This document shows, one piece after another, positions 12,157 through 61,114 of a stretch of DNA of 62,909 bases (positions are counted from its first letter, which is position 1; the number at the start of each line of letters is the position of its first letter). The stretch covers positions 1 through 62,909 of the forward strand of contig SCQV01000205.1 in NCBI GenBank assembly GCA_004299085.1, read 5' to 3'. The stretch is from Chitinophagaceae bacterium. Its GTDB lineage: Bacteria; Bacteroidota; Bacteroidia; Chitinophagales; Chitinophagaceae. The notes below the pieces were generated by a model. It saw only the letters and a program-made list of their open reading frames with translations. It was not told the DNA's origin and did not search any database. Position numbers and translations under genes: made by a program.

Positions 12157-12184
12157 TGCTTAAACCGTCTTTGATTATATTGAA

Positions 12185-40142: not shown

Positions 40143-40145
40143 GGA

Positions 40146-41134: not shown

Positions 41135-41809
41135 TTAAAACTTTCCATATCTTTTATAGGCTTCAACCGGGTCAACACCTTTTAAAATAGCCGTTCTTAC
41201 CCTATTTTCTGTTTGTAATACTTTTTCTGTTTGGTTAATTACTTCTTCCACTATCGCCAATGGTATAATGACAATCCCATCTCTGTCTGCTATTACATAA
41301 TCCCCCGTATGGATTTTAACTTTGCCAATGACAATAGTGCCAGCAAAGGAGGTGGCTTCCCATTTTGTTACTACATCCACGGGAGTAAGATATTTACAAA
41401 AGACCGGAAAATTAATCTTCTCAATAAATGCAGTATCGCGGCACCCGCCATCTACTATATATCCCCTAACCTCTTTATGAAGTAGCGTTTCAGCAGACAA
41501 TTCACCCATGTGAGCGACGGTGGTATCATGTGGTTGGCAAATAATTACATGACCACTTGGGGCCCTTGACAAAAGTTCACACCACTTTAATAAGCTATCA
41601 TATTCACTGATGGTATTGTTCCTTTTACCTTCAATTGTAAAGACTGTCCCTGTAATTTTATGATGAATATTTAATGGATTAATATTATACGGCAGCACCT
41701 GATCAGGATAACCCATAGCACGAAGCACATCATATACAGCTCCGGTGTAACATTGCTGCAATCTATCAGAGAAGGATAGTTTTGTATTTGGTTTATTATC
41801 TGCGTCCAT
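41135..41809 (-). CDS. RraA-family protein (class II HMG/CHA-aldolase-like)
   Basis: RraA-like pattern: GHVIICQ...MGELSAETLLHKEVRGYIVDGGCRDT...FPVFCK...GDYVIADRDGIVIIP. Confidence 0.8.
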   Translation of the reverse strand: MDADNKPNTKLSFSDRLQQCYTGAVYDVLRAMGYPDQVLPYNINPLNIHHKITGTVFTIEGKRNNTISEYDSLLKWCELLSRAPSGHVIICQPHDTTVAHMGELSAETLLHKEVRGYIVDGGCRDTAFIEKINFPVFCKYLTPVDVVTKWEATSFAGTIVIGKVKIHTGDYVIADRDGIVIIPLAIVEEVINQTEKVLQTENRVRTAILKGVDPVEAYKRYGKF

Positions 41810-41815
41810 TTTTAG

Positions 41816-44800
41816 TCATTTCAAAATATTATTCTTGAAAAAATGGTCAAGGGCATCCGCGTCAAGGTACTCGTCATCAAGGGTGTCGTAAATTGCATCT
41901 AAGGCAACGGGAACTTCAGTATCAGTCGCGATTAATTCAAGTACCTTTTCCCTTTCTTTAGAAGAAGAAACAGGTACGCTAAAATTCCAATACTTACCAT
42001 CAATATCCTTTTCTGACCCGCTGATCAACCAAAGACCAATTTTATCTTTGATCTGATTCCATTGACTTTTCAGATCACTTCCTTCCGTTAATAAAACTGA
42101 AGTATTTAGAGCGAGCTTAAGATTAGAAGCCCCCACATTTCTTATAAATTCCATAGCATCTGCTAAATTATAAGGAGGAATGCCAAACCTTACCCGTAGA
42201 TTTAAATGGATATCATATTTTTCTGAAATTTTACAAAGGGAAATAAAAGTCTCTTTAAAAGAATTCCAAGTCTGCTCTTGTGTAAAATTATTTTCAGGGA
42301 AACGGTGTAGTGGTAATATTATTTCTTTTGCCTGAAAAAGGGACATTTTGCTTAATACATCTTCAATCTTAGCCATACTATTTGCATAAGCATCATGGAG
42401 ATTATTAATCAATCGCAACTTTGGGAAAAAATCAACTCCCGAAGTTAAATCAACTATGATTTTTAATTTCTGCCTTTTAATCCATCCGGATTCTTGTTTC
42501 AAGACGGATTCTTCTTTTTGAGCCAGATACTTCCAATCTAAAACTACCCCATCAAAATGCTCAAAGAAAGTTGGTCTGCGCAATATCTCATTTTTTACCA
42601 TTCGGATACTTCTTAGCGGTAAGTAACGATCTCTGGGCCGTTGGGGAGGGATTGCGGACCCGATTTGTACTATATTCTGCTCTTGAACGTAGACTTCGAA
42701 GATACGAATATCACCCCCGGCCATGGTATTTGGACCGCTAATGCCTATTTCTTTTTTATCTATTCCTTCGGGCAAATATCCAATAGCTGTTTTTTCGGAT
42801 TGATCCAACGTTACTTCTTTTATTGATCCAATTTCTCCACAATGAGAAGATATATTAAATGGATACTCATTCCATGAATTATTGGCGATTCCTAGTAGAT
42901 ACTTCCCATCTCCTTTGCAACAGGTAATCAGGCTTAGTGAATCTCCCACATCAAATAATTTTTGATTACTAAATTCTTCATCTAATATGGCATGTACGTG
43001 GTTTAAAATTGGGAAAGGATTGGGCAACGGGTTATCAATTTCACTTTTCATATTTTGGCCGGATGTAATGATATTCATGTTGCTGATACCAAAAGCGCTG
43101 GCTAAAACAGTTACCCTGCCATTACCATATCCTGTTCGTACTGCGAGGGGAGTATTACCAGTTGTCGCCAGAATATCTGCATTTTCGGGGAAAGACAAGG
43201 AATAATAATTAAATGATACTTTTTCCGTGAATTTTTTGTTCCCTACAAAAACGGGGTGGTCTGTTTTTATATTCTTGTTTGCAGAATTGGTTTTTATATT
43301 GCCAAGGCCTTCAGGAAATTTACTTAAATTACCAGATGTAATAATTAGATGACCTCCATTTTTAATATAATTTTGCAGCTTATTATAAATCTCTTTGCCT
43401 CCGGAAAGTTCTCCTGCAATAACTAAGATTGGATACTGAGCCAAAATCCAATCTTCTGCATCACTGAGGACACAATCTGCAATATCGCCATATGGTGTAC
43501 GACAAATAAATCCCGACTCATCATGATAATAAGAAGAATTCTGATAGCCGGGATAAATCATGTTTAATACTGCATCCGTCAGGTAATCACCGGGATCATA
43601 AGGCAAATTTCCCCAGACCCTATATACATCTGAAGAGTATAGATGCCTTGGAAATGTCCAGCCTGCAAAGAAATCCAACATAAGTGCAACCGGAGTGTAC
43701 ATAACTCCTGGCTGGCCATTCTTTTTGACCCATTTTACAGCATTTTGCTGTATATGACCAATTGGGGTGAGTGCATCATTATTGGCCTTTGCCCTGGAAA
43801 AATCTTTGATCTTTTTTTCGTAAAACCACCCTTGGTCAAAACCAACCATCATGGAATTATACAAAATATGGCTATACATTAGTCTTTTCATCAGGCTCAA
43901 ACTTGTTCCCTTGCCAGGCCCATGATCTTCCCCGCTTGAGTTATAAGATTTATATCCCCAGCGATTCCACCCCGATGAATTACCAAACCAAGGAACACCA
44001 TACTGCTTCCCTGCTCCGCGAATAAAGGAGTAATACACTTGTCCATTAGGAAGCGCTTCCCCCGTTTCAGCCCCGATCAAGTTATAAACCCCTTCTTTTA
44101 GAAAATAATGTCCGAAGTTAAGTGAAACAAGAGTCGTTATTTTATTTCTCAGATCATCAGTTAGTTGTTCAAAGTGCTGTTGAAAATTAAAGTATTGATG
44201 AACCCTATTAGCCGATCTGGGATACATTTCAATTGCATAACCACCAATATATCGTCCATCCTGTTCTCCATTATCCATCCCCAGCCAATGATCTCCCAAC
44301 TTTGAACTAAATAACTCAGATAGCTTTGGAGAAAGTTTAAATTGTTCCCATGATCCAAGTCCACTGGTGCCAGGAATATATTTTAATTTTGTTAGTCCGG
44401 ATCCTGGAACATATCCCCATATATCGAATAAAAAAAGTCCTCTGCGTTGGAATTCGTCAATTAAAGCTGGAACATTATCAGCAGATAGGAACCCATGATT
44501 GGGCCAAATCACATTTCCCAGATGAAAAACTTTTGTATAAATATCCAAGTCCTTTGAATAATTTACGATTTTATTACCTTCAATTTGAAAACTTCTTAAT
44601 GTCATGAAATTTGTTTCATTGCTAAATGTATTCCAGTCTGGCGGCTTAACAAATCGGCGTTTATCGTCTGGATACTCACGTGGGTTTAGAAGATGAATGT
44701 TTATGTAATGCTTAGTAGAATTGGCGCTTTCTTGTTTGTTAATTGTAAGTAATTTATCTCCCACAGTGATATTGGGCAATTTGTTTACATATCCAATAGG

Positions 44801-44848
44801 GGCAAGAATGAGCAAATTCTTGATAGCAGTTCTTCTATTTATAGCCAT
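41816..44848 (-). CDS. 1010-aa multidomain protein with a Tat-like signal, an unassigned GH-like N-terminal region, a GATase1/beta-galactosidase-trimerisation-like middle and a C-terminal xylose-isomerase-like TIM barrel
   Basis: The N-terminus MAINRRTAIKNLLILAP is twin-arginine-like. GDHWLGMDNGEQDGRY and IGAETGEALP segments are present. YPILVIAGELSGG...GGHLIITSG is class-I amidotransferase-like. The last roughly 270 aa (KLKIIVDLTSG...HLNLRV...LKLALNTS) resemble the AP_endonuc_2 / sugar-phosphate isomerase TIM fold. Confidence 0.5.
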   Translation of the reverse strand: MAINRRTAIKNLLILAPIGYVNKLPNITVGDKLLTINKQESANSTKHYINIHLLNPREYPDDKRRFVKPPDWNTFSNETNFMTLRSFQIEGNKIVNYSKDLDIYTKVFHLGNVIWPNHGFLSADNVPALIDEFQRRGLFLFDIWGYVPGSGLTKLKYIPGTSGLGSWEQFKLSPKLSELFSSKLGDHWLGMDNGEQDGRYIGGYAIEMYPRSANRVHQYFNFQQHFEQLTDDLRNKITTLVSLNFGHYFLKEGVYNLIGAETGEALPNGQVYYSFIRGAGKQYGVPWFGNSSGWNRWGYKSYNSSGEDHGPGKGTSLSLMKRLMYSHILYNSMMVGFDQGWFYEKKIKDFSRAKANNDALTPIGHIQQNAVKWVKKNGQPGVMYTPVALMLDFFAGWTFPRHLYSSDVYRVWGNLPYDPGDYLTDAVLNMIYPGYQNSSYYHDESGFICRTPYGDIADCVLSDAEDWILAQYPILVIAGELSGGKEIYNKLQNYIKNGGHLIITSGNLSKFPEGLGNIKTNSANKNIKTDHPVFVGNKKFTEKVSFNYYSLSFPENADILATTGNTPLAVRTGYGNGRVTVLASAFGISNMNIITSGQNMKSEIDNPLPNPFPILNHVHAILDEEFSNQKLFDVGDSLSLITCCKGDGKYLLGIANNSWNEYPFNISSHCGEIGSIKEVTLDQSEKTAIGYLPEGIDKKEIGISGPNTMAGGDIRIFEVYVQEQNIVQIGSAIPPQRPRDRYLPLRSIRMVKNEILRRPTFFEHFDGVVLDWKYLAQKEESVLKQESGWIKRQKLKIIVDLTSGVDFFPKLRLINNLHDAYANSMAKIEDVLSKMSLFQAKEIILPLHRFPENNFTQEQTWNSFKETFISLCKISEKYDIHLNLRVRFGIPPYNLADAMEFIRNVGASNLKLALNTSVLLTEGSDLKSQWNQIKDKIGLWLISGSEKDIDGKYWNFSVPVSSSKEREKVLELIATDTEVPVALDAIYDTLDDEYLDADALDHFFKNNILK

Positions 44849-44893
44849 AATAAAAATTTTTGAAAATGAATTAGCGAGAGAACTTAATGTATT

Positions 44894-45397
44894 TTATAGG
44901 TCAATATTTTCAGGAGAACGATATTTTACTGTTTGCAAATGCTCGCAATATAAAACCAACTCTCCATCATTTTTAAACACTTCATAAGCTGCGCAATATA
45001 GCCCCATGTCTTTATATTTTGGTTGCTTGCTCAAGTCAGTTTTAATAGTATAAATAGTATCACCTATAAAAACAGGCTTGATGAATCGTAGTTTATCATA
45101 GCCATAGCTAAATGCATTCACACAGTTAGTCGCCACCAAACCTAACCCAACACTGAAAACAAATGCCCCGGCCACTAATCTTTTCCCAAATACCCCTTCA
45201 TTCTTTGCAAAAATCTCGTCAGCTACATAAGGGTGCATATCTAAAACGAGAGCATTGAATTGCATACTCTCTCCTTCACTGATAGTACGCCGTATAGAGC
45301 GTATTTTCTTTCCTATTACAATGTCCTCGTAAAACCAGTTTTCGGCATTCCATATAGGAATATCTTTGTGCTTCGTTGGATCAGGGTTCGGATTCAT
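44894..45397 (-). CDS. MaoC-family (hot-dog fold) dehydratase/hydratase
   Basis: 167 aa with the MaoC pattern D...HPYV.DE.FAK...FGKRLV.G. Confidence 0.8.
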
Positions 45398-45406
45398 ATA
45401 AAATAT

Positions 45407-46489
45407 CTATTTGTTACATTGAATGATTAAGTTACTTATTTTTACTGCACCATCATTACTTGATTTATAGGCAGCTTCCACACACGCCATAGTATAAATA
45501 CAGTCCTCTACAGAATTATCGGGTGTATTTACAGGGTCCTCCGCAGCCTTCATCATCTCTCCCATAGAGCCTATAAAGGCATGCGGGAACCAACTTCCTT
45601 CAATTTCCTTTGTTTTCCATTCTGCTTCTTTTCCCTCTTTTATAATGGTATATTCAAATAAGTCTGGAACACCCGTAGGATAATTCATCAATACACCCAT
45701 CTTTATTCTAATCGCCCCTTTTGTTCCTTCAAATTTGATATATGATTGTTGATGATGTAAACCAAATTGATGACAATGATTTGTCAAAATATCAGCTCTC
45801 ACGAGTTCGCCATAATCCATGATAATATTACTTCGTACAGATGCTAAATCCTGCATCATCGGATGCTTTGTTGTTTTAGCGTATATACCGATAGGATTAC
45901 CTAAGAAAGAGCGTATCAAGTCAATATAATGAATGCTATGATAAGGTATTTCTACACGTGGCGCCTCGAAAAGGAAACTCCATAAATTCCATGGCGTAAA
46001 GACATTAACATTCACTTCTATATCGCAAAGCTCTCCAATGTTTCCCTTTTCTATCATTTCTCTTGCCATTGTAATAAAAGGTGCATATCTCAGTTGGAAA
46101 TTAACCCCTGCAATCATCTTCTTATCTCGTGTTATTTGAAGGATTTGTTTTGCCTGCTCATAATTTTCTCCCATCGGTTTTTGCATCAACACTATGGCAT
46201 GACCAGGCAACTTCTGTAATAAACATGTAAGCACATTTCCGGGTACTGCTAAATCAAACACTACCTTGGATGGAGCATCCTCCAGCAACTGATTTATGCT
46301 TTCATATACCTTGGGCACAGCATATTTTTCTGCGGTAGCCTTTGCCTTTTCAATATTGATATCGTAAATACCAATTACATTAAAATTAGCCAGCCTGTAA
46401 GCCGGTAGGTGAGCATCATTAACTATTCCCCCCGCGCCTATAATTATTATAGGTGCTGTATTTTTAGGTATTGAAGAATGAGGTTTCAT
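45407..46489 (-). CDS. Gfo/Idh/MocA-family oxidoreductase
   Basis: N-terminal Rossmann IIIIGAGGIVNDAHLPAY and the EKP-like MQKPM motif. Confidence 0.85.
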   Translation of the reverse strand: MKPHSSIPKNTAPIIIIGAGGIVNDAHLPAYRLANFNVIGIYDINIEKAKATAEKYAVPKVYESINQLLEDAPSKVVFDLAVPGNVLTCLLQKLPGHAIVLMQKPMGENYEQAKQILQITRDKKMIAGVNFQLRYAPFITMAREMIEKGNIGELCDIEVNVNVFTPWNLWSFLFEAPRVEIPYHSIHYIDLIRSFLGNPIGIYAKTTKHPMMQDLASVRSNIIMDYGELVRADILTNHCHQFGLHHQQSYIKFEGTKGAIRIKMGVLMNYPTGVPDLFEYTIIKEGKEAEWKTKEIEGSWFPHAFIGSMGEMMKAAEDPVNTPDNSVEDCIYTMACVEAAYKSSNDGAVKISNLIIQCNK

Positions 46490-46529
46490 ATCTGATTATT
46501 TTATATCAACATTTCTAATCATTGCGCTT

Positions 46530-47585
46530 TTATGCCCCAGTCAGTGCACCAACATAATTGCCGTATGTTAAAAAGAGTACTGACAATATTAATACCGTTA
46601 TCGCAAGAGCTAGCGACCATTTTGTCCGTATTTTTACACCTTTCCATTCTTTTAATATTAATCCTATTACACTACTAAAAAGTACCAACATAATCATATG
46701 AATCGCCCAACTGCTAAATTCGTATGGGCCCATTCTTGTATTACCCATTCCATAGAAAAAGAATTGTGAATACCATAACAGACCGGTTATAAATGCCAAT
46801 ACATAATTGAATGGTAATATGGTTCTATTCTTGACTTTTTTCAATGTTTTATATTCTCCAAAAGTCTTTTGTTTGAGATGTAAATAGATACAGTAAATAG
46901 CCGTTGTGAGGAAAGCGCCAGTATTAGTAAAAATATAGATAACATTCCCTTGAAACTGGCCGGCGCCATATTTTGCAGCTACGTCTGCAATAGGCTGTCC
47001 CTGAGCCAAAGCAATTCCGTATACCGCAGAGAGTATTCCTGCTAATAAGCATAGAGGCAATCCTTTCCTAAGTGAAAACAAAGAAGACGAATTTTCTTTT
47101 ATTTGCAGATCTTTCTCCTTAAATCGACCTGCGAAGCCACAGATAGCAATACCCAATGCCCCGATAGCGATGCCCATCATCAGCCAACCTGATCCCGCTT
47201 TAGTCAATATCTTTTCTAATTGTCCGTTCACTAATGGTGGAATTATAGTGCCTAATACACAGGATAGCCCTACAGATATAGCGTATGTTAAGGAGAATCC
47301 TACATATTTGATAGCCAGCCCGAAGGCTGTACCTCCGATGCCATAAGCTGCACCGAGTATAAAAGCCTCATACATGGCATCCACGGGTGCTTCTTTCAAT
47401 ACTTCTCCTAAATGAGGTATGGTAATCCATGCCCCGATAATCGGTAATAGGAACCAGCAGAACACAGCCTGAGCCAGCCAGTACGTCTGCCAGGACCACG
47501 CCTGGGTTTTTTCCTGCGGAGTGTAACACACTGAAGCACTTCCGGCACCAACAGCATGAAATGAGACACCAGTTATAACACTCAT
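46530..47585 (-). CDS. rhaT: RhaT-family sugar:H+ symporter (L-rhamnose/proton symporter-like)
   Basis: 10-TM DMT-type protein. The N-terminus G..FH..GA.S...Y.P..K...WSW.T.W and the C-terminus W...M...VL...IGL.LKEW align with E. coli RhaT as recalled. Confidence 0.8.
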   Translation of the reverse strand: MSVITGVSFHAVGAGSASVCYTPQEKTQAWSWQTYWLAQAVFCWFLLPIIGAWITIPHLGEVLKEAPVDAMYEAFILGAAYGIGGTAFGLAIKYVGFSLTYAISVGLSCVLGTIIPPLVNGQLEKILTKAGSGWLMMGIAIGALGIAICGFAGRFKEKDLQIKENSSSLFSLRKGLPLCLLAGILSAVYGIALAQGQPIADVAAKYGAGQFQGNVIYIFTNTGAFLTTAIYCIYLHLKQKTFGEYKTLKKVKNRTILPFNYVLAFITGLLWYSQFFFYGMGNTRMGPYEFSSWAIHMIMLVLFSSVIGLILKEWKGVKIRTKWSLALAITVLILSVLFLTYGNYVGALTGA

Positions 47586-48448: not shown

Positions 48449-48472
48449 AAGTTAAATATTACACTATGATTA

Positions 48473-49612: not shown

Positions 49613-49617
49613 TTTCT

Positions 49618-50754: not shown

Positions 50755-50771
50755 ACAGTTATTTTTATCTC

Positions 50772-52356: not shown

Positions 52357-52395
52357 TAAAGATTCTTATTATTGTGTGGTACAAAAGACTATGTC

Positions 52396-54921
52396 CTATG
52401 GCCTTAAATATATTATTTCACCAGGATAGGTTTTAATACTTATGATTTTTTCAGTCATTTTTCTCTTTTCATTATTAGTAATTAAATAGCCTTCATTACC
52501 CCATGGCATAATAAGCCTTAGTATGTTCCCTTTTTCACTTTTAATCTTTATTTCCTTCACGTTTCCATCTTTTAAACTGGCACTTACCAAAAAAGCACCG
52601 GCTGTTCTTAAGTCATAAAAGGAAGCGTTTTTATTTTTAGGCCAATTGGGAAATAAACGAATAATCCCGTCATAGCTCTGGATTAGACATTCATTGATCA
52701 CAACCGGGAGCGCAAAATTTTCGAACCATATACCCATGTGGGCCATAAAATCAAAGGTAGTAAGATCACTATATCTGCCTCCTGATTGCATTACCATGTC
52801 AGTTGCCGTGCCATCTGGCAATAAACAATATTTTATTTGCCGTTTGAACTTATATAGATTTAACATTCCAATTCGCGCCGCTTGCAGATTTCTAAATACA
52901 AGATCATTTCCGCCTTCGTTTTGAGAATTTTTATACGTATTCTTTAACATCTGAAGAGTAGTCAGATCCGAACCCAGACCATAATCATCTCCTGGGAAGA
53001 CCGGAGTTAAAGGTAGTGGTACATTATAAATGACGTTTGCATTTGCTCCTGGTGCTCCCACCAGAACTTTTCCGTATTTCTCTGATTGAGCAGTAGGATA
53101 TTTAGGATAGTGGTCCAGTATATCCCGAATATTATTTAATAAATATTTCTCCTTCTCTTGAGTGCCTAATACTCTTGTAGCCTCCTGAAAGGCTTTGAAA
53201 ATAAATTTAGTAAGAGCCAAATCAATAATACAATCATAGTCGTACTTAAAACCGGGCTGTAATCCATAAAGCTCAGGAGGAATAGTAGGGAATATATGAA
53301 AATCATTATCACCCCATCTTGGCAACCCGCTTGCAACATGCCGCTTCATATAAGCCACTAAGAAAGTAACCGCTTCCTTTATCGGAACATAAGCACGATT
53401 CTTAAGAAAATTAGTATCTCCTGAATATAAATAGTGCAACCACAACTCTTGTACGGCCCAAGGTGTTTCACAAATCTCCCAACCCCAGGTAGGAACAGGA
53501 TAAGGGTTCATAGTCATCTTAACAGGATAGGAAGAGTGAGGAAAATAAGCACCGGGAAGATTATAATATTCTCTTGCCCATTCCTTACTTGAACCCAATA
53601 GGAAATTTATTAAATTTACATACGGTAAGTCTTTTTCCAAGTGATTACTTGAAAACGTCATCCAAAAGGGTTGTTCAATATTGTAATTCATATGATAATC
53701 TCCGTGCCAGGCAGTGCCAATTTTGTCATAGCTCCAATTTGCAAAGAGCCCCGGGCATGTTGCTTCTGCTTTTGCTGCGCAATTAAAAAAATAAAGGTTG
53801 TGGTACCAAACACCCTCAAGAAATGAATCACTAAGGACAACTCCTGATTTGTTCCAATAATCTTTCCAGGTATTTATATTACTATCCAATTTCAAGGTTA
53901 AGTCTTGCATCTTAGGCGTAATTATTGATATTGCCTTAGTGGGTACGGTAGAATCTGCCCCATATTCGAGAGACACCGTACCAATGAATTTGTCTACTTG
54001 TGATAGAGCCGATTCCAGAGGGCTCATTTTTATTTTATCCCCGTACAAGTCCATCCGCATTTTGGATGTTTGTATCTTATCGTTTATTGGCAGGTTAACA
54101 GTGACGCTCAAACGAAAGGCACGATCTTTGGGATCTCCCTTCCCCATATTATACTCTTTCGGTTCCTCGGCTGGCAGGGTTTGTCTAAAAGAAAGTGTTC
54201 CTCTTTTTAAATTTTCATTGACGCTATATCTGGGAAATTCTTTTGGGGTAGATGGATCTGGAATGATTTTTATTCTATTGAAGATATTAGTATGCAGGCT
54301 TCCGTCAGGATTAACCAGCCACATCCATAGCTTATCTTTTTTTAAATCAACAAATATTTTTAAGAAAACTTTATTTTTTTGAGCTGTTCTCATTTCAATT
54401 GTACAAACCCCGGTAGCAATGTCCAGTTTATATCCTACCATATCAACGCTTCGTCTATCAAAACCCAATAATACGGAGCCGCATGGGAATGGCCTCGGAT
54501 AAGGCTTATTATAGTTTTCTCCTGCCATTTTAACATAATTAGAAAACCAGGTGTCTTCCGATAAAGAAGAAAATGTATCAGGAATTGCCTTGACCTTATT
54601 GAACACATAGTTAAAAGTGCCTATTTCTTTACGATGGTTTTCTGCAATTCGAATATCCCAAACGTTATTATCTCCAAAGCGAAGCACTATAGCATCTGGA
54701 CGCGTGGTAACTACAACTCCCATAGCACCATTACCAAGTAAAGCCCCCTCAAAAAAGTTGGGTGCTGGACCATTAAAAGTTATTGGGAAAAGTTTTGCCT
54801 GATTAAAGGAGGAAAAGTTTTGGTCAATTTGTGCACTTACACAAGTTACCAAAAAGACTGTAAAAGTCAATATCCCCCAAATTGTCTTTTTTATCATTTT
54901 AATAAATAACATGACGAACAC
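52396..54921 (-). CDS. Secreted GH95-like (alpha-L-fucosidase/galactosidase-type six-hairpin) glycoside hydrolase, divergent
   Basis: Signal peptide (likely start ATG 54897). N-terminal ALLGNGAMGVVV resembles the GNG..G motif of the GH95 N-domain. WHGDYHMNYNIEQPFW resembles the W..dyt.N.N.qm.YW segment. The assignment is tentative. Confidence 0.45.
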   Translation of the reverse strand: MFVMLFIKMIKKTIWGILTFTVFLVTCVSAQIDQNFSSFNQAKLFPITFNGPAPNFFEGALLGNGAMGVVVTTRPDAIVLRFGDNNVWDIRIAENHRKEIGTFNYVFNKVKAIPDTFSSLSEDTWFSNYVKMAGENYNKPYPRPFPCGSVLLGFDRRSVDMVGYKLDIATGVCTIEMRTAQKNKVFLKIFVDLKKDKLWMWLVNPDGSLHTNIFNRIKIIPDPSTPKEFPRYSVNENLKRGTLSFRQTLPAEEPKEYNMGKGDPKDRAFRLSVTVNLPINDKIQTSKMRMDLYGDKIKMSPLESALSQVDKFIGTVSLEYGADSTVPTKAISIITPKMQDLTLKLDSNINTWKDYWNKSGVVLSDSFLEGVWYHNLYFFNCAAKAEATCPGLFANWSYDKIGTAWHGDYHMNYNIEQPFWMTFSSNHLEKDLPYVNLINFLLGSSKEWAREYYNLPGAYFPHSSYPVKMTMNPYPVPTWGWEICETPWAVQELWLHYLYSGDTNFLKNRAYVPIKEAVTFLVAYMKRHVASGLPRWGDNDFHIFPTIPPELYGLQPGFKYDYDCIIDLALTKFIFKAFQEATRVLGTQEKEKYLLNNIRDILDHYPKYPTAQSEKYGKVLVGAPGANANVIYNVPLPLTPVFPGDDYGLGSDLTTLQMLKNTYKNSQNEGGNDLVFRNLQAARIGMLNLYKFKRQIKYCLLPDGTATDMVMQSGGRYSDLTTFDFMAHMGIWFENFALPVVINECLIQSYDGIIRLFPNWPKNKNASFYDLRTAGAFLVSASLKDGNVKEIKIKSEKGNILRLIMPWGNEGYLITNNEKRKMTEKIISIKTYPGEIIYLRP

Positions 54922-55122
54922 ACATATATCTATTTGGTGAGTAAAAAATATGTTTTAAATTTATATTTGTAAAAAGAAGTAAGAAAAAGGTTTAAGACGG
55001 TGATATTTATAATAATTGATTAAAAAACCGTATAATATAGAATCCAAAATGATTATCCCGATTACTGTTTTGTCATTAGTCCCAACTAACTCAGAGGCCG
55101 GAATGCCCCCCGAGTTACCTAC

Positions 55123-56640
55123 TTAATAGCCATGGTTCTGTACCAACTTAGGATTAGCGTCTATTTCGCTCTGTGAGAAAGGAAACAAATAATTTTTATT
55201 AGGATCAAATTGGCGATGAGTTCCACCTGGGTCCACTAATGTAGGTATATAAGTTTGGGCTATTTTCCAACGTTTAATATCTAAATATCTATCCCCTTCA
55301 AGGCCTAATTCAACCCTCCTTTCCTCCCTAATTGCCTCTCTCATTTGTCCTTGGTTTAATCCTTGTGGCAGTGGTGGCATATTAACACTTGGTCTAGCAC
55401 GTACCATATTGATAGCTGCATAAACTGAGGCATCTGGGCCGACTGCTTCGTTTTCGGCTTCCGCATACATTAACAAGACTCCAGCATATCTTAGTAAGAC
55501 CCAATCCTGGTCACTTTTAGTTGAATAATCATACGGGTAGGCATCTAAATTTACTCCTTTTAACGCTTCATAACCTGTCACAGAAGAGCTACCGCCGCTG
55601 CCATTGAGGTAAACCGAGTCTCCTGCAGAATTAACAAGAGCTTGACTAACTCTAGCCACTGTATATGCAAGCCTTGGATCCCGATTCTTGAAAGGATGAT
55701 TAGGATCATAAAGTGGTGAGGTGGAGATCGGTTGACCGTCTGTACATTCAAAGGCGTTGACAAACTCTTGTCTCGGATTAATCAGTCCCCACCATCCGAT
55801 CTCTATATCTTGATCCGAATAGTAATTGGGATTAAGAAATTTACTTGAGAAAATAATTTCAGGATTATTTATTTGTTCTGATTTTAAAAATAGGCTTTGA
55901 TAATTGTCACAAAGATGAAAGACTCCACTCTGAATGATTTCATTTGCCACTTCAGCAGCTTTTGAGTATTGTTCATTATATAATAAGACTTTAGCCTTAA
56001 GAGCCAAGGCGGAACCTTTCACTGCATAACCGGAATATTGGGTATTAGGAAGATTGGCAATTGCAAAGTCAAGATCTTTATATATTTGTGTGTCAACCTC
56101 AGCCACTGTACTTTGCTTTATCCTAGCCTCTTCAACCGTGACCGGTGCCGTATATAATGGTACTCCTCCGTAGAAATTAGTAAGAGTGAAATAAGATAGC
56201 GCTCTTAAAAATCGAACTTGTGCTTCATACTGGGTTTTTGTTTCGTCACTAATGGGTGTCCTTCCGATATTTGCTAGGAAAAAGTTACACGAACTAATCC
56301 CATTATAGCAATCATCATAAATACTTGAAACAAGGCCTCCTGAGGTTGGTGTAATAACTCCTGCAGCAAGCGTTTGCAAAGAACTTGACCCTTGACTCTG
56401 CTGAGAATAGTCTGCATCACCCCCCAAGATGGACCACATCATTTGTTGGTAATCAAATGTAGAACTGGTAAGTCGATTATATACGCCGGCAAGGGCCATA
56501 TCCGCGTCTTGTTGAGTCTGCCAGAATGTTTGACTAGATAATTGATCTAGTGGTTCTTTATTTAAGAATTTACTACATGAAGTCAGAATTAACACCATGA
56601 CTCCAACCGAAAAAATCTTAATACCTATATCCTTTATCAT
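55123..56640 (-). CDS. RagB/SusD-family outer-membrane lipoprotein
   Basis: Lipobox LTSC and TPR-like SusD patterns (FLRALSYFTLTNFYGGVPL; C-terminal ...NPKLVQNHGY). Confidence 0.9.
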   Translation of the reverse strand: MIKDIGIKIFSVGVMVLILTSCSKFLNKEPLDQLSSQTFWQTQQDADMALAGVYNRLTSSTFDYQQMMWSILGGDADYSQQSQGSSSLQTLAAGVITPTSGGLVSSIYDDCYNGISSCNFFLANIGRTPISDETKTQYEAQVRFLRALSYFTLTNFYGGVPLYTAPVTVEEARIKQSTVAEVDTQIYKDLDFAIANLPNTQYSGYAVKGSALALKAKVLLYNEQYSKAAEVANEIIQSGVFHLCDNYQSLFLKSEQINNPEIIFSSKFLNPNYYSDQDIEIGWWGLINPRQEFVNAFECTDGQPISTSPLYDPNHPFKNRDPRLAYTVARVSQALVNSAGDSVYLNGSGGSSSVTGYEALKGVNLDAYPYDYSTKSDQDWVLLRYAGVLLMYAEAENEAVGPDASVYAAINMVRARPSVNMPPLPQGLNQGQMREAIREERRVELGLEGDRYLDIKRWKIAQTYIPTLVDPGGTHRQFDPNKNYLFPFSQSEIDANPKLVQNHGY

Positions 56641-56668
56641 TTTAAAGAATTTTAATAGTTAATATTGA

Positions 56669-59600
56669 TTAAAGAGTAAGCCTAACTCCGAAAGTATATG
56701 TTTTAATTTGAGGGTAGGCGCTATATCTTCCACCCTGCGTACTCCTTTCAGGATCGGATCCAGGATATTTTGTAACAGTCAAAATATTGTTCCCGGAAAT
56801 ATATATACTTGTAGGTCCAAACCCAATCTTTTTAATTATGTTTCCAGGTAAATTATAGCTAATGATAAGATTCTTTAATCTGAGATAAGACGCATTTTTA
56901 AGCCAATATGTCGATTGAACACCCGACACCGGAGGATAGCCAGTTATGTACATAGCTGGATATTCATTGGTATGATGAGTTGGTGTCCACATATTTTTAA
57001 CGAAATTAATCGTTGGAGGGGAACCTTGTACATAAGGTGAAAATCCCCACCCTCCTCCATTAAAATAGAAATATTGCCCTTGAACACCTTGGAAAAAGGC
57101 ACTTATATCAAGCCCCTTCCACCCAAGACTAAGGGTGCCACCATAATAGAATTTAGGATAAGCTCCTGGGACTACCACTCTATCTTTAGAATCGACAACC
57201 CCGTCTCCGTTAATATCAGCAAATTTTAAGTCGCCGGGTTGCGGCGTATATTGCTGGGTGGGCGATTTATTAATTTCTTCTTGACTTTGAAAAATGCCAA
57301 TCCACTTAATTAAATAGAAAGAATTGAAGGGAATTCCTGCTTTAGTGATAGTAGAACTACCAATCGAAGGCGCAACAACCTGGAGAACTTTATTTTTATT
57401 CGTAGAAAAGTTTACACTCACTCCGTAATGAAACTGACCGATCGTGTTCTGGTGAGAAACTTCAAACTCCCACCCTCTATTTCTCATTTTACCGTAGTTT
57501 ATTGTGGGAGCACTTAAACCGACACTAGCCGGAATAGGAGCCTGGTATAGAATCCCACTTGTCAATTTATTATACCAATCAAATGTAGCCGTTAAAAGCC
57601 CATCAAGAATATCTACATCTACACCAAAATCTGTCATAGTTGTTGTTTCCCATTTTAATGATTTATCCACTAACCGAGTTAATTGAACCCCTGGATCCAA
57701 ATTATTAAAAGGGTATGAAGTGATAGATAGTATATCCTGATATGGATATAAACCAACATTTTGATTTCCTAGCTGTCCCCAAGATCCCCTAATTTTTAAA
57801 TTGCTTAACCAATTTAGATTCTTCATAAAAGACTCTTCTGATATTCGCCAGCCGGCTGAAACAGAAGGGAATAGACCCCATCTGCCTTGGGGTGCAATCC
57901 TAGAAGTCCCGTCATACCTCATGTTGGCCTCAAAGAGGTATTTCCCTTTAAAATCATAATTTACGCGACCAAAATATGACAAGAGTGACCAAGCGTTAGC
58001 TGTTCCACTTGTAGTTTGTCCATCTGTTGAACCCGCATTTATCTCATTTAAGTTATCCGAAGGGAAAGATGTTCTGTGTGCCCCCAATTGCCGAAAGAAA
58101 TTAGACTCAAGATCATATCCTAATAAAACACTGAGATGATGTTCGCTTTTAAAAGTATTATCATAGTGAAGGGTTGAAAAAAGAGACGTAAGAGTGTTCT
58201 CCGTAGAATTATCAGTAACTCCCTCATGTACTGGAAAATTATTATCAGCATAACTGCTGTCTTTAAAGTAATATGTATCTTCAGGGTGCTCACGTAATTT
58301 ATTAAAGGTATTCCCATAAGTAAATGCTCCTTTTGTGTACCAATTGAGATGCTTATTAAATCTTATATCCACGTAAACTTGAGGGACAAAAGTGTAATCC
58401 TGTGTTTTATTAAAGCCAACAGCGTCGGCTTCGAAGGGGTTTCTAGCAGTATATTCTCCGATTTCGCTGCTGTACCTTGCCACATATACTGTTTGACCAT
58501 CTGCCAGCTTCATTGTTGGAGTATAGTTCGGTGCTTGGGCAAAAACACCTAGTAAATAATCGCCATTACTAGAATTGATATAGCTCTCTGTAATATCCTG
58601 TCTATTCATATTTACCTCACCTCCAATAGTAATCCACTTTTTAACCTGTGAATTTATGGAGAAATGTAAATTATATTTTTGAAATGAATAGATACTGATT
58701 ATACCACCTTGATTCAAATAACCTAAATCTAGTCTGAAATTTGTCTTCTTATCTCCCCCACTTACACCTAAGTGATGATTTTGTGCAAAACCAGTATGAA
58801 ACATAAATTTCTCCCAATTAAAATTGGGATAGTGAACAGGGTCATTGGGATGATCTTTAAATGCATCAATATCTTCCTGAGAAAAATAAGGCTGTAATCC
58901 CTCTCTAATCCTTCCTTCGTTCCAGTATTCCATATATTCTGCCGAATTATATAATAATTTCGGCAATCTGGTCGCACGTTGGAATTGTATATTCCCATCA
59001 TACTCAATGGTAAGAGGCCCTGGCTTTCCTGTCTTTGTCGTAACTAAAATAACCCCGTTTGCGCCTCTTGAACCATAAATAGCACTGGCGGCTGCATCTT
59101 TTAAAATAGAAATAGATTCAATGCTATTAGGGTCTAATGTTGACATATCCCCTGGAACTCCATCAATGAGCACTAAAGGGGTGCTACCTGCAGAACTGAA
59201 CGTTCCCAACCCACGAATCTGTATATTATTACCGGGGTCTCCGGGCTTACCATAAGATTGGGCAATCTTTAGTCCCGCAACTTGCCCTTCCAATAAATCG
59301 ACCGGATCACTGACTGGGCTCTTAATTAATTCCCGGCCACTTACGCTAGTTACCGACCCAGTCAAATCAACCTTTTTCTTAGTTCCATATCCAATAACTA
59401 TAAGGCTATTCAAATCATTTGCACTTTCCTGTAGTGTTACATTAATTAGCCTCTGTCCATTCACTGGGACAGCCACTGTTTTATAAGAAAGGAAGCTAAA
59501 AATCAGTGTAGCATTTTTAGACGCTTTTATAGAAAAGTGCCCACTATTATCGCTAATAGTTCCATTTGAAGTCCCCTTAACCATCACGGTTACCCCGGGT

Positions 59601-59716
59601 AAAGGAGATTGGTTTCCTGCTGAAATGATCTTTCCGGAAATGATGTTTTGAGCATTAACAGTTCCATAAAGGAATAAGGTAATTAGCCCCATAAACAACT
59701 TTCTAAGCAATGACAT
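56669..59716 (-). CDS. SusC/RagA-family TonB-linked outer-membrane transporter
   Basis: Signal peptide, CarboxypepD_reg domain (ISGKIIS...PLPGVTVMVKGT), TonB-box/plug region (VIGYGTKKKVDLTGSV) and terminal F/L. There is no STN domain. The ORF extends to 59758, but ATG 59716 (MSLLRKLF) gives a normal signal peptide. Confidence 0.9.
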   Translation of the reverse strand: MSLLRKLFMGLITLFLYGTVNAQNIISGKIISAGNQSPLPGVTVMVKGTSNGTISDNSGHFSIKASKNATLIFSFLSYKTVAVPVNGQRLINVTLQESANDLNSLIVIGYGTKKKVDLTGSVTSVSGRELIKSPVSDPVDLLEGQVAGLKIAQSYGKPGDPGNNIQIRGLGTFSSAGSTPLVLIDGVPGDMSTLDPNSIESISILKDAAASAIYGSRGANGVILVTTKTGKPGPLTIEYDGNIQFQRATRLPKLLYNSAEYMEYWNEGRIREGLQPYFSQEDIDAFKDHPNDPVHYPNFNWEKFMFHTGFAQNHHLGVSGGDKKTNFRLDLGYLNQGGIISIYSFQKYNLHFSINSQVKKWITIGGEVNMNRQDITESYINSSNGDYLLGVFAQAPNYTPTMKLADGQTVYVARYSSEIGEYTARNPFEADAVGFNKTQDYTFVPQVYVDIRFNKHLNWYTKGAFTYGNTFNKLREHPEDTYYFKDSSYADNNFPVHEGVTDNSTENTLTSLFSTLHYDNTFKSEHHLSVLLGYDLESNFFRQLGAHRTSFPSDNLNEINAGSTDGQTTSGTANAWSLLSYFGRVNYDFKGKYLFEANMRYDGTSRIAPQGRWGLFPSVSAGWRISEESFMKNLNWLSNLKIRGSWGQLGNQNVGLYPYQDILSITSYPFNNLDPGVQLTRLVDKSLKWETTTMTDFGVDVDILDGLLTATFDWYNKLTSGILYQAPIPASVGLSAPTINYGKMRNRGWEFEVSHQNTIGQFHYGVSVNFSTNKNKVLQVVAPSIGSSTITKAGIPFNSFYLIKWIGIFQSQEEINKSPTQQYTPQPGDLKFADINGDGVVDSKDRVVVPGAYPKFYYGGTLSLGWKGLDISAFFQGVQGQYFYFNGGGWGFSPYVQGSPPTINFVKNMWTPTHHTNEYPAMYITGYPPVSGVQSTYWLKNASYLRLKNLIISYNLPGNIIKKIGFGPTSIYISGNNILTVTKYPGSDPERSTQGGRYSAYPQIKTYTFGVRLTL

Positions 59717-59755
59717 AGTTGTAAAGTTTAAAATGCATAATAAAGAATCTAACGT

Positions 59756-59763
59756 CAAAATTA
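59756..59763 (-). promoter_or_regulatory. Candidate Bacteroidota -7 promoter box (TAnnTTTG) for the susC-like operon
   Basis: The minus strand reads TAATTTTG about 40 nt upstream of ATG 59716. No clear -33 TTTG was seen at ideal spacing. Confidence 0.3.
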
Positions 59764-59914: not shown

Positions 59915-59952
59915 TTAGAATATCTTGCCATGTTTTTAGAATGCTTGTCATA
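59915..59952. promoter_or_regulatory. Tandem direct repeat in the susC/araC divergent region (candidate AraC operator)
   Basis: ttagaatatcttgccat (59915-59931) and ttagaatg-cttgtcat (59936-59951) lie about 200-235 nt upstream of susC. Confidence 0.25.
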
Positions 59953-60238
59953 CCTTCTTATTAAGTACTGGATGGCATTTGTTGCTAATTATATATTATT
60001 ATGACCACGACTCTGAAAATACAGTATATTGTTGGCCGTTTGAAACCCTTATTAGCACTTGATCGTGTCTATTTTGCCATATCATTAATTTTGATAGGAA
60101 AACAGTTTAAAATAATTGCTATTGTCTTTATCTAAATTGAGTTTAAGGAATTATTTAAAAAAATAGTTTCCCAAATTTGGATATCATTTTAACATTTTCA
60201 ATGTATATTTGAATTAAGTTCCATATTTAATATTAGAA

Positions 60239-61114
60239 ATGAAAGCCGAATTAATAGTTGATGCCCCTATTATTGATCAGAAAAAAATATGGGTTAAAAA
60301 AGTGAATAGGCCACATTTTGACCATCCTTTCCATTTCCATCCCTTATGCGAACTTACATGGGTAGAAAAAGGCCATGGTAAACTAATTATAGGAGATTAT
60401 ATAGGGAACTTTTCCGAAGGTGAATTAATAATGGAAAGTGCGGGGTTGCCACATTTGTGGAAGTGTGATTCTGATTTTTATACTGAGAAAAGTGCTTTAT
60501 TAACAAACGCATTTGCCATTTATTTTCCATCATCACTAATTCCCAAGCTGACCGATGAAATGGATTGCATCTCTCGTTACGAGGAAATCTTAAATAAAGC
60601 AGAAAGGGGTATTCGGTTCTACGGTCAAACTAAAAAAGATGTAATTAATAAAATTGAAAAAGTTATTATTACAGATGGATTAGAAAGACTTGGTCATTTT
60701 CTTCAGATCATTCATGTCATTACCATGTCAAATGAATTCAACTGCCTGGCAAGTATCGGTTATAAAAATAATTATAATGAACTTGACATAGAGCGCTTTA
60801 ATAAGGTATATCAATTTTTACTAAATAATTTTAGCAGGGAGATTACGCTTAGCGAAGTATCCGCTATCTGTAGCATGACCCCCAACTCTTTTTGCCGTTT
60901 TTTTAAAATAAAGACTCAAAAAACCTTTACAAGGTTTCTGAATGAATTACGAATAGGACATGCCTGTAAATTGTTACAAGATGAAAATAATTCTGTTATG
61001 AATGTCTGTTATGAATCAGGCTACAATAGCCCTGTTAACTTTTTTAAATTTTTTAAAATAATCACTCATAGCACGCCAGTTGAATATCGCAATCGTATCA
61101 AGGACATTTCTTGA
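60239..61114 (+). CDS. AraC-family transcriptional regulator (cupin-type sensor plus double HTH)
   Basis: N-terminal cupin HFHPLCELTWV and C-terminal LSEVSAICSMTPNSFCRFFK...GYNSPVNFFKFFK. It is divergent from the SusC operon. Confidence 0.85.
   Translation: MKAELIVDAPIIDQKKIWVKKVNRPHFDHPFHFHPLCELTWVEKGHGKLIIGDYIGNFSEGELIMESAGLPHLWKCDSDFYTEKSALLTNAFAIYFPSSLIPKLTDEMDCISRYEEILNKAERGIRFYGQTKKDVINKIEKVIITDGLERLGHFLQIIHVITMSNEFNCLASIGYKNNYNELDIERFNKVYQFLLNNFSREITLSEVSAICSMTPNSFCRFFKIKTQKTFTRFLNELRIGHACKLLQDENNSVMNVCYESGYNSPVNFFKFFKIITHSTPVEYRNRIKDIS

Follow-up and report, generated by a model that had tools for sequence, protein, structure and literature searches.

How does a locus that opens like a polysaccharide utilization locus (PUL) come to continue with genes for coenzyme A (CoA) thioester chemistry, and which sugar could such a gene set serve? 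The question is raised by a 62,909-nucleotide stretch from a Chitinophagaceae bacterium (NCBI GenBank assembly GCA_004299085.1, contig SCQV01000205.1, positions 1 to 62,909; the whole stretch is called the window here). In it, 13 consecutive minus-strand open reading frames (ORFs; 41135..59758) encode, in order, SusC, SusD, a GH95-like glycosidase, the hot-dog protein MaoC1, a protein with the fold of a sugar substrate-binding protein (SBP), two family III CoA-transferases (CaiB1 and CaiB2), an Amidohydro_2 lactonase (Amh2), a RhaT transporter, a Gfo/Idh/MocA dehydrogenase (Gfo), a second hot-dog protein (MaoC2), a 1010-residue protein and an RraA-like protein; a divergent plus-strand ORF (60239..61114) encodes an AraC-family regulator. 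We assigned domains with Pfam, tested equivalogs against NCBIfam cut-offs, and sought structural matches by sequence search of the PDB and by AlphaFold2 (AF2) modelling with Foldseek. Together, the results indicate that the genes include a conserved module that probably serves the catabolism of a deoxy sugar derived from pectin or rhamnogalacturonan II (RG-II). By analogy with known routes, the module would be an oxidative pathway for a deoxy sugar, linked to a PUL, in which the middle steps proceed through CoA thioesters, with a gene set undescribed in the literature searched. A fuller reading, in which the run joins a PUL front end, this cytoplasmic module and an RraA-like aldolase and the module acts on a 6-deoxy sugar of RG-II chain B, we regard as evenly balanced.

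We first consider conservation. Scanning one genome per species, we found a relative of the SBP-like protein encoded in 366 stretches; 80 loci with 10-kb flanks were kept (L numbers below), the window proteins were located in them by tblastn, and all of their ORFs were clustered. We found that a core of MaoC1, the SBP-like protein, CaiB1, CaiB2, Amh2, RhaT and Gfo, often joined by MaoC2, recurs in nearly all of the 80 loci, and the recurrence of its order argues that the arrangement is not due to chance. MaoC1 is present in 69 of the 80 and the Gfo dehydrogenase in 64; an aldonate dehydratase is not part of the conserved core. Carriers are found among the Chitinophagaceae, Cyclobacteriaceae, Saprospiraceae and Spirosomataceae and in Marinoscillum, Reichenbachiella and Adhaeribacter; cultured ones include Chitinophaga alhagiae T22, Terrimonas rubra KCTC 23299, Filimonas zeae, Agriterribacter humi YJ03, Marinoscillum sp. 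MHG1-6 and Adhaeribacter aerolatus. The conserved unit has seven to eight genes and is smaller than the run of 13: neither the 1010-residue protein nor the RraA-like protein was found by tblastn in any of the 80 loci. An earlier reading of this DNA, the first-pass annotation, had taken all thirteen genes as one system; that view stands for the core and not for these two genes. Its 1010-residue Tat (twin-arginine translocation) protein is better described as a lineage-specific periplasmic add-on, and its placing of RraA within the module finds support only from two other arrangements, described below, in which RraA accompanies module genes.

The core occurs in four layouts. Layout A (the window, L001-L004, L007 and L085-L087) reads [SusC SusD GH95-like] core MaoC2; layout B (about 15 loci) reads SusD GH95-like CaiB1 CaiB2 GH139 MaoC2 [GH29] MaoC1 SBP Amh2 RhaT Gfo; layout C (about 25 loci) reads core [PelZ-like lyase] GH138 [GH28]; and layout D (seven loci) reads GH2 SBP CaiB1 CaiB2 Amh2 AraC Gfo MaoC1, with FucP next in the six that have sufficient flank. 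The module is preceded by a SusD orthologue (54-61% identity) in L001-3, L009, L011, L029, L030, L043, L053 and L063, and GH95-like orthologues (58-65% identity) occur in 13 of the 80 loci; SusC is also present in L001-L003, where the flank reaches far enough. Altogether, SusD and GH95-like orthologues precede the module in about 13 of the 80 loci and also in the close relatives L085 and L086. Close relatives keep the order AraC-SusC-SusD-GH95-like-core(-MaoC2), and AraC orthologues (58-90% identity) adjoin the module in L007, L010, L022, L045, L085 and L087. That SusD and the GH95-like gene precede the module in both layouts A and B indicates that the link between PUL and module survives internal rearrangement. 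The first-pass claim that the SusCD and glycosidase genes are syntenic with the CoA genes is thus borne out across two internal orders, for a subset of loci only.

The genes that surround related modules point to RG-II. Counting GH138, GH139, GH137-like, aceric-acid hydrolase and apiose genes as RG-II-linked, we found at least one such family within 10 kb in 47 of the 58 loci of at least 17 kb, and a pectin, fucose or rhamnose carbohydrate-active enzyme (CAZyme) in 55 of these 58. The GH138 alpha-galacturonidase cluster exceeds its equivalog cut-off (NF049878, 1450 bits vs 1300) and matches PDB 6HZF at 1024 bits. The aceric-acid hydrolase (992 bits vs a cut-off of 950) adjoins the module in five loci, on the opposite strand. 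Other families in the same contexts are the GH137 part of a BT0996-like enzyme, a PelZ-like lyase, GH28, GH29, GH106 and GH78. Genes resembling those for apiose catabolism, OiaX and OiaK, lie just upstream of the module in L039 (633-3190; 504 and 406 bits, below the cut-offs of 700), and OiaX-like genes (cluster c33) are also near the module in L052 and L069; apiose genes beside the module imply that the module handles a different sugar. These neighbourhoods suggest islands that gather the catabolism of RG-II rare sugars. The proposal of the first-pass annotation that the substrate is a 6-deoxyhexose or a pectin/RG-II-type sugar is strongly supported by the GH138, GH139, aceric-acid hydrolase, GH137-like, GH28, GH106 and apiose genes near orthologous modules. 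In L068, same-strand genes upstream of the module were considered as extra pathway steps and set aside: they are dTDP-/UDP-sugar biosynthesis genes, unrelated neighbours.

Within this context, one CAZyme family, GH139, lies repeatedly within the module itself. The GH139 cluster (c7) matches PDB 9HYQ/9HMB with E 5e-96; these are structures of 2-O-methyl-fucosidases, and GH139 targets 2-O-methyl-fucose, not fucose (PMC12282258). The position of c7 had suggested a CaiB-CaiB fusion, which is ruled out by the Pfam and PDB matches to GH139. The gene sits inside the module at three insertion points, namely after the SBP gene (L004), between CaiB2 and MaoC2 (about 15 loci, layout B) and between CaiB2 and Amh2 (L021), which argues for repeated selection for linkage; in L090 it lies directly upstream of CaiB1. 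The GH139 QN pair, which includes the proposed catalytic base, is kept in 18 of 18 genes, and the catalytic-acid motif SLET in 14 of the 18. Enzymes of ordinary deoxy-sugar catabolism also adjoin the module: the RhaM mutarotase in seven loci, FucI in five, enolase-type dehydratases in L009, L090 and L092, and a UxaA-type dehydratase in L092. The presence of FucI or of conventional aldonate dehydratases beside the module argues that it serves a substrate those enzymes cannot handle.

We next consider the CoA genes. CaiB1 shares 49% identity with CaiB2, and none of the 140 CaiB copies has lost the catalytic Asp. The best PDB match of CaiB1 is succinate--hydroxymethylglutarate CoA-transferase (SUGCT; 198 bits), with the catalytic Asp aligned. 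CaiB1 precedes CaiB2 in 68 of 70 loci. In L068, an 813-residue ORF (11059-13500) fills both CaiB positions, and one of two neighbour proteins, taken to be this ORF, matches CoA_transf_3 (E 5e-185); the ORF is likely a natural CaiB1-CaiB2 fusion, with an assembly or frameshift artefact as the alternative. The constant order and the probable fusion point to a heteromer. Paired subunits are known for the succinate-type family III transferases SmtAB and BbsEF.

The two hot-dog proteins differ at the active site. In 67 of 68 MaoC1 orthologues the catalytic Asp is followed five positions later by the His, in the motif GDFFPHH or one close to it (GDYFPHH, GDFYPHH). In MaoC2, the motif LDMHPYV, which has no His, stands in place of GDxxPxH in 15 of 17 orthologues, and the protein is well conserved (85-91% identity across Bacteroidota, 76% in a 56%-GC lineage described below). 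By analogy, MaoC2 is probably a non-catalytic partner of MaoC1; HadAB-type heterodimers are a precedent for such a hot-dog pair. MaoC1 gave weak matches to RipB/Ich and to mesaconyl-CoA hydratase. None of the cytoplasmic enzymes of the window reached an NCBIfam equivalog cut-off.

We turn next to the SBP-fold protein of the core. Its model is a complete MalE-type (type-II periplasmic-binding-protein) fold (AF2 pLDDT, predicted local distance difference test, 83), and Foldseek matched it to MalE3 and SmoF (TM, template-modelling score, 0.83; E 1e-20 for MalE3); a PDB sequence search returned ordinary sugar SBPs only. The sequence begins at the first beta-strand, with no signal peptide, and in 132 of 140 family representatives the N-terminus is extended by at most 10 residues, in agreement with the first-pass description of the protein as signal-less. 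No ATP-binding cassette (ABC) permease or ATPase was found in the window, in the recurrent clusters or among the annotated neighbours of the 80 loci. At E <=1e-5 there are 4236 homologues, of which the best 120 are at least 63% identical; the family is compact, with, at E <=1e-30, 527 clusters at 50% identity among 1.8 billion representatives. Mean column identity is 74%, and of 126 residues invariant in the Bacteroidota set 83 persist in a homologue of 37% identity. By eye, the invariant His, Arg, Asp and Cys map to positions that we take to be those of the MalE ligand cleft. Judged from its sequence, the protein is cytoplasmic, and it may act as a specificity subunit or as an enzyme.

The remaining core proteins resemble parts of an oxidative sugar pathway. 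The only NCBIfam match of the lactonase is L-fucono-1,5-lactonase (147 bits vs a cut-off of 400), and it matches PDB 4DLF with E 4e-23. RhaT scores 308 bits with NF010024 against a cut-off of 468. Six loci have, in place of RhaT, a major facilitator superfamily (MFS) cluster, c14, whose representative scores as FucP (TIGR00885, 373 bits vs 280). The best NCBIfam matches of the Gfo dehydrogenase reach 32-53 bits against cut-offs of 350-650, its PDB matches are generic, and no Tat or Sec signal was seen in it by eye. A role for this protein in a 3-keto-glycoside pathway is disfavoured, since it has no Tat signal and lies with the lactonase. We also considered a LigC-LigI/J-LigK (protocatechuate 4,5-cleavage) reading of the Gfo, Amidohydro_2 and RraA genes, which was rejected: the equivalog scores are far below cut-offs, and the RhaT/FucP transporter and the glycosidase context oppose it.

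The RraA-like protein scores below the equivalog cut-offs of the aldolases of its family: 75 bits vs 179 and 72 vs 304 with the LigK models, and 36 vs 196 with HMG aldolase. Orthologues with 64-69% identity to it were traced in the neighbourhoods L090-L094. In L091 (Pedobacter nutrimenti) the operon reads GH29 GH29 RraA SAF-like GD_AH-dehydratase FucP GH29, an oxidative operon of the fucose type, whose obvious candidate for the aldolase is RraA. L090 reads GH139 CaiB CaiB Amh2 RhaT Gfo MaoC2 GH95 RraA enolase-type-dehydratase MFS. In L092-L094, on 56%-GC contigs with an IclR regulator, the order is MaoC1 SBP-like MaoC2 RraA SAF GD_AH; these stand alongside a single CaiB, a lactonase, RhaM, an enolase-type dehydratase, a Gfo protein and an FAH hydrolase (for example L092 898-11172). 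By its sequence, this arrangement looks like a non-Bacteroidota form of the module combined with a complete gene cluster for oxidative deoxy-sugar catabolism, and the MaoC-SBP-MaoC-CaiB unit thus also occurs outside the low-GC Bacteroidota loci. MaoC1, MaoC2 and CaiB of the 56%-GC cluster are 55-76% identical to those of the window, the dehydrogenase 32% and the lactonase 28%. The conventional dehydratases beside the CoA unit in L092-L094 suggest that this unit handles a substrate they cannot. RraA is a recurrent, not universal, companion of the module genes, and a candidate 2-keto-3-deoxy-(6-deoxy)aldonate aldolase that would form pyruvate and lactaldehyde.

From the gene content, order and context, the catalytic motifs and the leaderless SBP-fold protein, we infer a substrate and a series of chemical steps, each of which is proposed here. 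A 6-deoxy sugar would be imported by RhaT (FucP in some genomes), oxidized at C1 to a lactone by the Gfo-type dehydrogenase and opened to an aldonate by the Amidohydro_2 lactonase. The CaiB1/CaiB2 heteromer would then place CoA on the aldonate carboxylate, and MaoC1, aided by the His-less MaoC2, would remove the 3-hydroxyl by alpha,beta-elimination; the SBP-fold protein perhaps helps MaoC1 by binding the sugar-like acyl chain. The next aldonate would receive the CoA, in the manner of the carnitine CaiB/CaiD cycle, and the RraA-like aldolase would cleave the 2-keto-3-deoxy acid to pyruvate and L-lactaldehyde. That an aldonate is dehydrated as its CoA thioester has, in our judgement, somewhat less than an even chance. 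As the substrate we tentatively favour 2-O-methyl-L-fucose, because of the GH139 linkage, the exchange of RhaT and FucP, and the coexistence of the module with FucI or ordinary dehydratases. With this substrate the elimination product would be an enol ether, and its hydrolysis would yield methanol and a 2-keto-3-deoxy acyl-CoA; the freeing of methanol in this way would give a rationale for the unusual CoA chemistry. The complete scheme, an oxygenase-free disposal of 2-O-methyl-L-fucose through a CoA-borne aldonate, a heteromeric hot-dog dehydratase, loss of methanol and a MalE fold serving as specificity subunit or ether-cleaving catalyst, is, taken as a whole, rather less likely than not.

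Several observations weigh against this scheme. The window itself carries none of the RG-II-specific families, having only the divergent GH95-like enzyme, and for the assignment to RG-II we rely on orthologous modules in other genomes and on a relative with 94% identity, L088. No CoA ligase or other obvious priming enzyme is present in the module, and no recognizable demethylase, so that the enol-ether step comes from chemical reasoning. The closest characterized CoA-transferases act on dicarboxylates (succinate-glutarate, SUGCT, oxalate, mesaconate), which fit aceric acid better than a mono-acid aldonate. The use of four to five proteins for one dehydratase is unexplained for substrates that are not methylated. 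The gene of the proposed aldolase was missing from all 80 genome loci, and the SBP-fold protein enters the scheme solely through candidate roles that it may have.

Comparison with known systems shows which parts of the proposed route are familiar. The oxidative fucose/rhamnose route consists of a 1-dehydrogenase, a cog3618 lactonase (e.g. BmulJ_04915), an aldonate dehydratase, and a KDF/KDR aldolase or a 4-dehydrogenase with a hydrolase. The module resembles such pathways in its dehydrogenase, Amidohydro_2 lactonase and 6-deoxyhexose transporter, in the candidate pyruvate-forming aldolase at the end, and, in some loci, in a mutarotase. In contrast, it contains no enolase-, UxaA- or IlvD-type dehydratase, the defining feature of those pathways; instead it has two CoA-transferases, one or two hot-dog proteins and the SBP-fold protein, and its dehydrogenase is of the Gfo/Idh/MocA type. 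In the Escherichia coli CaiB/CaiD system, a 3-hydroxy acid is dehydrated as its CoA ester and the family III CoA-transferase recycles CoA from product to substrate. The module likewise pairs a family III CoA-transferase with a (de)hydratase for a hydroxy acid, and, as it has no thiolase or lyase, CoA-shuttle dehydration is the simplest reading. It differs in that its hydratase is of the hot-dog (MaoC) and not the crotonase type, it has no CaiC-type ligase, its two transferases are paralogous and its context is that of sugars; the CaiB equivalog model gives the window transferases 106 and 88 bits vs a cut-off of 413. The itaconate (Ict-Ich-Ccl) and mesaconyl-/malyl-CoA (SmtAB, Mct, Mch, Mcl) systems also combine family III CoA-transferases with a MaoC hydratase, SmtAB having two subunits. 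Unlike them, the module has no HpcH/CitE-type lyase, which was found neither among the 13 window genes nor in the recurrent clusters of the 80 loci, and it is embedded with a sugar transporter, a lactonase, a dehydrogenase and glycosidases. The scores are low here as well: 179 and 165 bits vs 700 for succinyl-CoA:mesaconate transferase, 61 and 32 bits vs 340 for RipB/Ich, and 23 vs 560 for methylfumaryl-CoA hydratase.

Among glycan systems, the RG-II degradome of Bacteroides thetaiotaomicron, as far as the available account of it goes, shares GH138, GH139, GH137, GH127 aceric-acid hydrolase, GH106, GH95, GH28, PL1 and GH2 with the surroundings of the module in other genomes, whereas the window locus has only the divergent GH95-like enzyme. 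As presented in PMC12282258, Ndeh et al. 2017 described the glycosidases for RG-II but did not follow the rare monosaccharides into the cytoplasm. In porphyran PULs of marine Bacteroidota, a cytochrome P450 oxidatively demethylates 6-O-methyl-D-galactose, and formaldehyde is released from the free sugar (PMC6292453). This is the one precedent that we found for methyl-sugar catabolism in PULs, and it is mechanistically unrelated: both would be PUL-linked answers to the block that a methyl ether places on sugar catabolism, but the module has no oxygenase, and the methyl group would leave as methanol after CoA-thioester elimination. The D-apiose pathways (RuBisCO-like OiaX, kinase OiaK) are likewise dedicated cytoplasmic routes for an RG-II-specific sugar, with unrelated enzymes and chemistry that use phosphorylated intermediates. 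A match to a characterized pathway, set beforehand by the first-pass annotation as evidence against a new system, was found neither among NCBIfam equivalogs nor in the literature searched. No description of the module gene set was found in the full-text literature searched, though it may be published elsewhere, and the same literature gave no catabolic route for 2-O-methyl-fucose or aceric acid.

Could the module simply be an oxidative pathway for ordinary L-fucose or L-rhamnose, with the CoA-transferase/hot-dog system replacing the missing L-fuconate or L-rhamnonate dehydratase and with no methyl ether involved? We consider this improbable, although it survives better than the other alternatives. 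It would account for the association of RhaT, FucP and the RhaM mutarotase with the module, for the GH29, GH95, GH106 and GH78 genes nearby, for a lactonase closest to L-fucono-1,5-lactonase, for a window without an aldonate dehydratase, and for RraA orthologues in a plain fucose operon. However, FucI and enolase- and UxaA-type enzymes adjoin the module in some loci and would make it redundant, the CAZyme found repeatedly inside it is GH139, which acts on 2-O-methyl-fucose and not fucose (PMC12282258), and four to five proteins for one dehydratase would be unparsimonious.

The dicarboxylate preference of the nearest CoA-transferases raises a second alternative, which we judge less probable still: that the substrate is the branched, acidic sugar found in chain B of RG-II, aceric acid (3-C-carboxy-5-deoxy-L-xylose). 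Here, C1 oxidation and lactone opening would give a substituted tartrate, which would receive CoA; dehydration would then give a beta-keto acid and decarboxylation 4-hydroxy-2-oxopentanoyl-CoA, from which CoA would be removed before an aldolase formed pyruvate and acetaldehyde. Chemistry on branched hydroxy-dicarboxylates is known from both MaoC hydratases and RraA-like HMG/CHA aldolases. Both families would therefore suit such a route, as would the paired subunits of the succinate-type transferases noted above; moreover, the aceric-acid hydrolase equivalog adjoins the module in five loci, and no pathway for this acid was found in the literature searched. Those five loci are, however, only five of 80, with the hydrolase on the opposite strand; the transporters are of the RhaT and FucP types, known for neutral 6-deoxyhexoses; RhaM and GH139 are the genes found inside or beside the module; and the RraA orthologues occur in a fucose operon.

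Least probable, and in our view quite unlikely, is that the CoA-transferase, MaoC and SBP genes serve an organic acid that is not a sugar, such as a C4-C6 hydroxy-dicarboxylate or a downstream product, and are only co-located with a separate dehydrogenase/lactonase/RhaT sugar unit and with PUL genes. In favour of it, all CoA-transferase and hydratase similarities are to organic-acid enzymes, and in the 56%-GC cluster the MaoC1, MaoC2 and CaiB proteins are close orthologues of those in the window while the dehydrogenase and lactonase are not. Against it, seven genes keep one order with overlapping or tight junctions across Bacteroidota families, the dehydrogenase is separated from the CoA genes by the transporter and lactonase, genes for the glycosidases GH139 and GH29 interrupt the run of CoA-module genes, and the SBP-fold protein is of the carbohydrate (MalE) type.

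The features of the locus in the window are listed in the table.

Features of the locus in the window, in order from the regulator to the end of the operon, with the match that supports each.
Feature	Position	Strand	Evidence
AraC-family regulator, candidate operon regulator	60239..61114	+	Pfam HTH_18 62 bits, Cupin_2
-7 promoter-like motif, Bacteroidota type (TAATTTTG)	59756..59763	-	about 40 nt upstream of susC ATG 59716; motif match only
SusC-type TonB-dependent transporter	56669..59758	-	TIGR04056 925 bits vs cut-off 368; Plug, CarboxypepD_reg domains
SusD-family surface glycan-binding lipoprotein	55123..56640	-	SusD_RagB 149 bits, SusD-like_3 83 bits
GH95-like exo-glycosidase, secreted, divergent (cluster c9)	52396..54921	-	Glyco_hydro_95_cat 99.7 bits
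MaoC1, hot-dog (R)-hydratase/dehydratase with catalytic motif	51913..52356	-	MaoC_dehydratas 90 bits; overlaps next gene by 8 nt
SBP-fold protein, leaderless, MalE-type	50772..51920	-	SBP_bac_1 28.1 bits vs cut-off 26
CaiB1, family III CoA-transferase	49618..50754	-	CoA_transf_3 331 bits
CaiB2, paralogous family III CoA-transferase, probable CaiB1 partner	48473..49612	-	CoA_transf_3 312 bits
Sugar lactonase, Amidohydro_2 (cog3618-type)	47582..48448	-	Amidohydro_2 135 bits
RhaT-family 6-deoxyhexose/H+ symporter	46530..47585	-	RhaT Pfam 176 bits
Gfo/Idh/MocA NAD(P)-dependent sugar dehydrogenase, cytoplasmic	45407..46489	-	GFO_IDH_MocA N- and C-terminal domains
MaoC2, hot-dog protein without catalytic His	44894..45397	-	MaoC_dehydratas 50 bits
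1010-residue accessory periplasmic protein, N-terminal RR motif	41816..44848	-	predicted fold; no Pfam/NCBIfam match above cut-off
RraA-like protein, candidate aldolase	41135..41809	-	Pfam RraA-like 100 bits

Much of what the first-pass annotation had said of this layout was reproduced. The ORF scan found exactly its thirteen co-directional genes and the divergent AraC gene at 60239, the Pfam profile search recovered all of its domain calls in the order given, and the computed junctions from susC to the RraA-like gene (28, 201, 39, -8, 17, 5, 24, -4, 40, 9, 45 and 6 nt) agree with its description of an 8-nt overlap to about 45 nt, apart from a gap of about 200 nt after susD. It had reported no sugar kinase, no RhaA/FucI isomerase and no enolase- or IlvD-type dehydratase, and our Pfam search of the 13 proteins agrees; it also gave no UxaA-type dehydratase and, in the locus, no crotonase or AMP-ligase domain. 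The hallmark of a PUL, a susC/susD pair, is present with 28 nt between the genes. The true start of susC is probably the ATG at 59716, the first ATG inside an ORF that begins with TTG. The promoter-like motif in the table is the sole minus-strand match to TAnnTTTG in the sequence scanned, namely the region upstream of susC and four internal gaps; the minus-strand scan found none in the 201-nt gap between susD and the GH95-like gene. One motif 5' of susC and none in the internal gaps scanned is no more than suggestive as to the transcription of the run. A TAnnTTTG motif also lies at 60204-60211, 28 nt 5' of the AraC ATG. Counts of sigma-70 promoters and intrinsic terminators were close to the shuffled expectation, the sigma-70 promoter type not being applicable to Bacteroidota. 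Directly 3' of the susD stop, where the 201-nt gap opens, an imperfect GC-rich hairpin (AACTCGGGGGG...CCTCTGAGTT; 55080-55122, minus strand) was judged by eye; such a structure could tune read-through from the outer-membrane genes into the remaining genes of the operon, or mRNA stability across this boundary.

The GH95-like protein and the 1010-residue protein complete the picture of the PUL. The catalytic-domain match of the former spans only profile positions 61-283 of 408; its N-domain scores 28 bits vs a cut-off of 27.7 and its C-domain 23.4 vs 27.6, its best sequence match to a GH95 enzyme in the PDB reaches only 60 bits, and it has no NCBIfam match. Its N-terminus is signal-like by eye, and the gene is co-oriented with susD, 201 nt downstream. 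For the 1010-residue protein, the only Pfam match is a sub-threshold one to AP_endonuc_2 (xylose-isomerase-like TIM-barrel), and no PDB sequence match was found. Foldseek on its AF2 model (pLDDT 73) recognized a GH42/GH164/GH35-like body and a ketose-3-epimerase/YcjR-like TIM barrel. It has 1382 homologues at about 50% identity, the few named hosts including metagenome-assembled genomes labelled Omnitrophica, Acidobacteriota, Bryobacteraceae, Phycisphaerae and Hydrogenedentes, and homologues occur in SusCD loci with GH29 and GH95 (L081) or with GH123 and GLAA-B (L089); L082 and L088 are also related loci. In the relative L088, the gene follows MaoC2, and GH95 and a GH140 apiosidase then stand in place of RraA. 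We take the protein to be a lineage-specific accessory periplasmic enzyme of the PUL, and its family is possibly a new family of periplasmic CAZymes. The PUL front end would thus consist of SusC, SusD, the GH95-like enzyme and, in this lineage only, a Tat-exported GH42-like/epimerase-like protein.

The rest of the window contains unrelated redox, transport and insertion-sequence (IS) genes, with no tRNA gene or Rfam match in the window, and repeats over 38-62.9 kb are limited to short two-copy matches of the chance type. Downstream of the RraA gene lies about 1 kb of non-coding DNA (40143-41134), in which a 72-residue ORF (40514-40732, plus strand) has a C-terminal sequence that resembles, by eye, the end of an IS-family transposase; this ORF may be the trace of a rearrangement through which RraA came to lie last in the operon. 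Beyond it, a 434-residue ORF without a Pfam match (38025-39329, plus) and a pirin-family gene (39339-40142, plus) lie on the strand opposite the operon and appear unrelated to it. On the other side, a 132-residue ORF (61537-61935) has no Pfam match, and a DDE_Tnp_ISAZ013 match (61970-62584, plus; 195 bits) covers profile positions 51-257 of 308 and is therefore truncated. With the DDE_3 and HTH_23 transposase at 643-1741 (minus), transposase genes or fragments thus lie near both ends of the window. Two adjacent fragments of a short-chain dehydrogenase/reductase (SDR) at about 14254-15005 (plus; 156 and 88 residues, adh_short and adh_short_C2) are possibly one frameshifted gene.

RG-II is among the most complex plant polysaccharides, and its glycosidases are now largely mapped. 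To our knowledge, apiose is the only rare sugar of RG-II with a described route in the cytoplasm. The module is a concrete and widely distributed candidate for the missing pathway of an RG-II rare sugar, and it offers annotations open to testing for several thousand proteins whose present labels are 'ABC transporter substrate-binding protein', 'CaiB/BaiF family' or 'MaoC family dehydratase'. If the CoA mechanism is true, aldonic-acid catabolism would have its first route that depends on a CoA thioester, and sugar catabolism a new logic, in which thioester activation of the aldonate replaces a metal-dependent dehydratase, with the possibility of oxygen-independent removal of a sugar methyl ether. 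The module would also represent a new enzymatic use of the MalE fold, and thus another binding-protein fold turned to cytoplasmic use.

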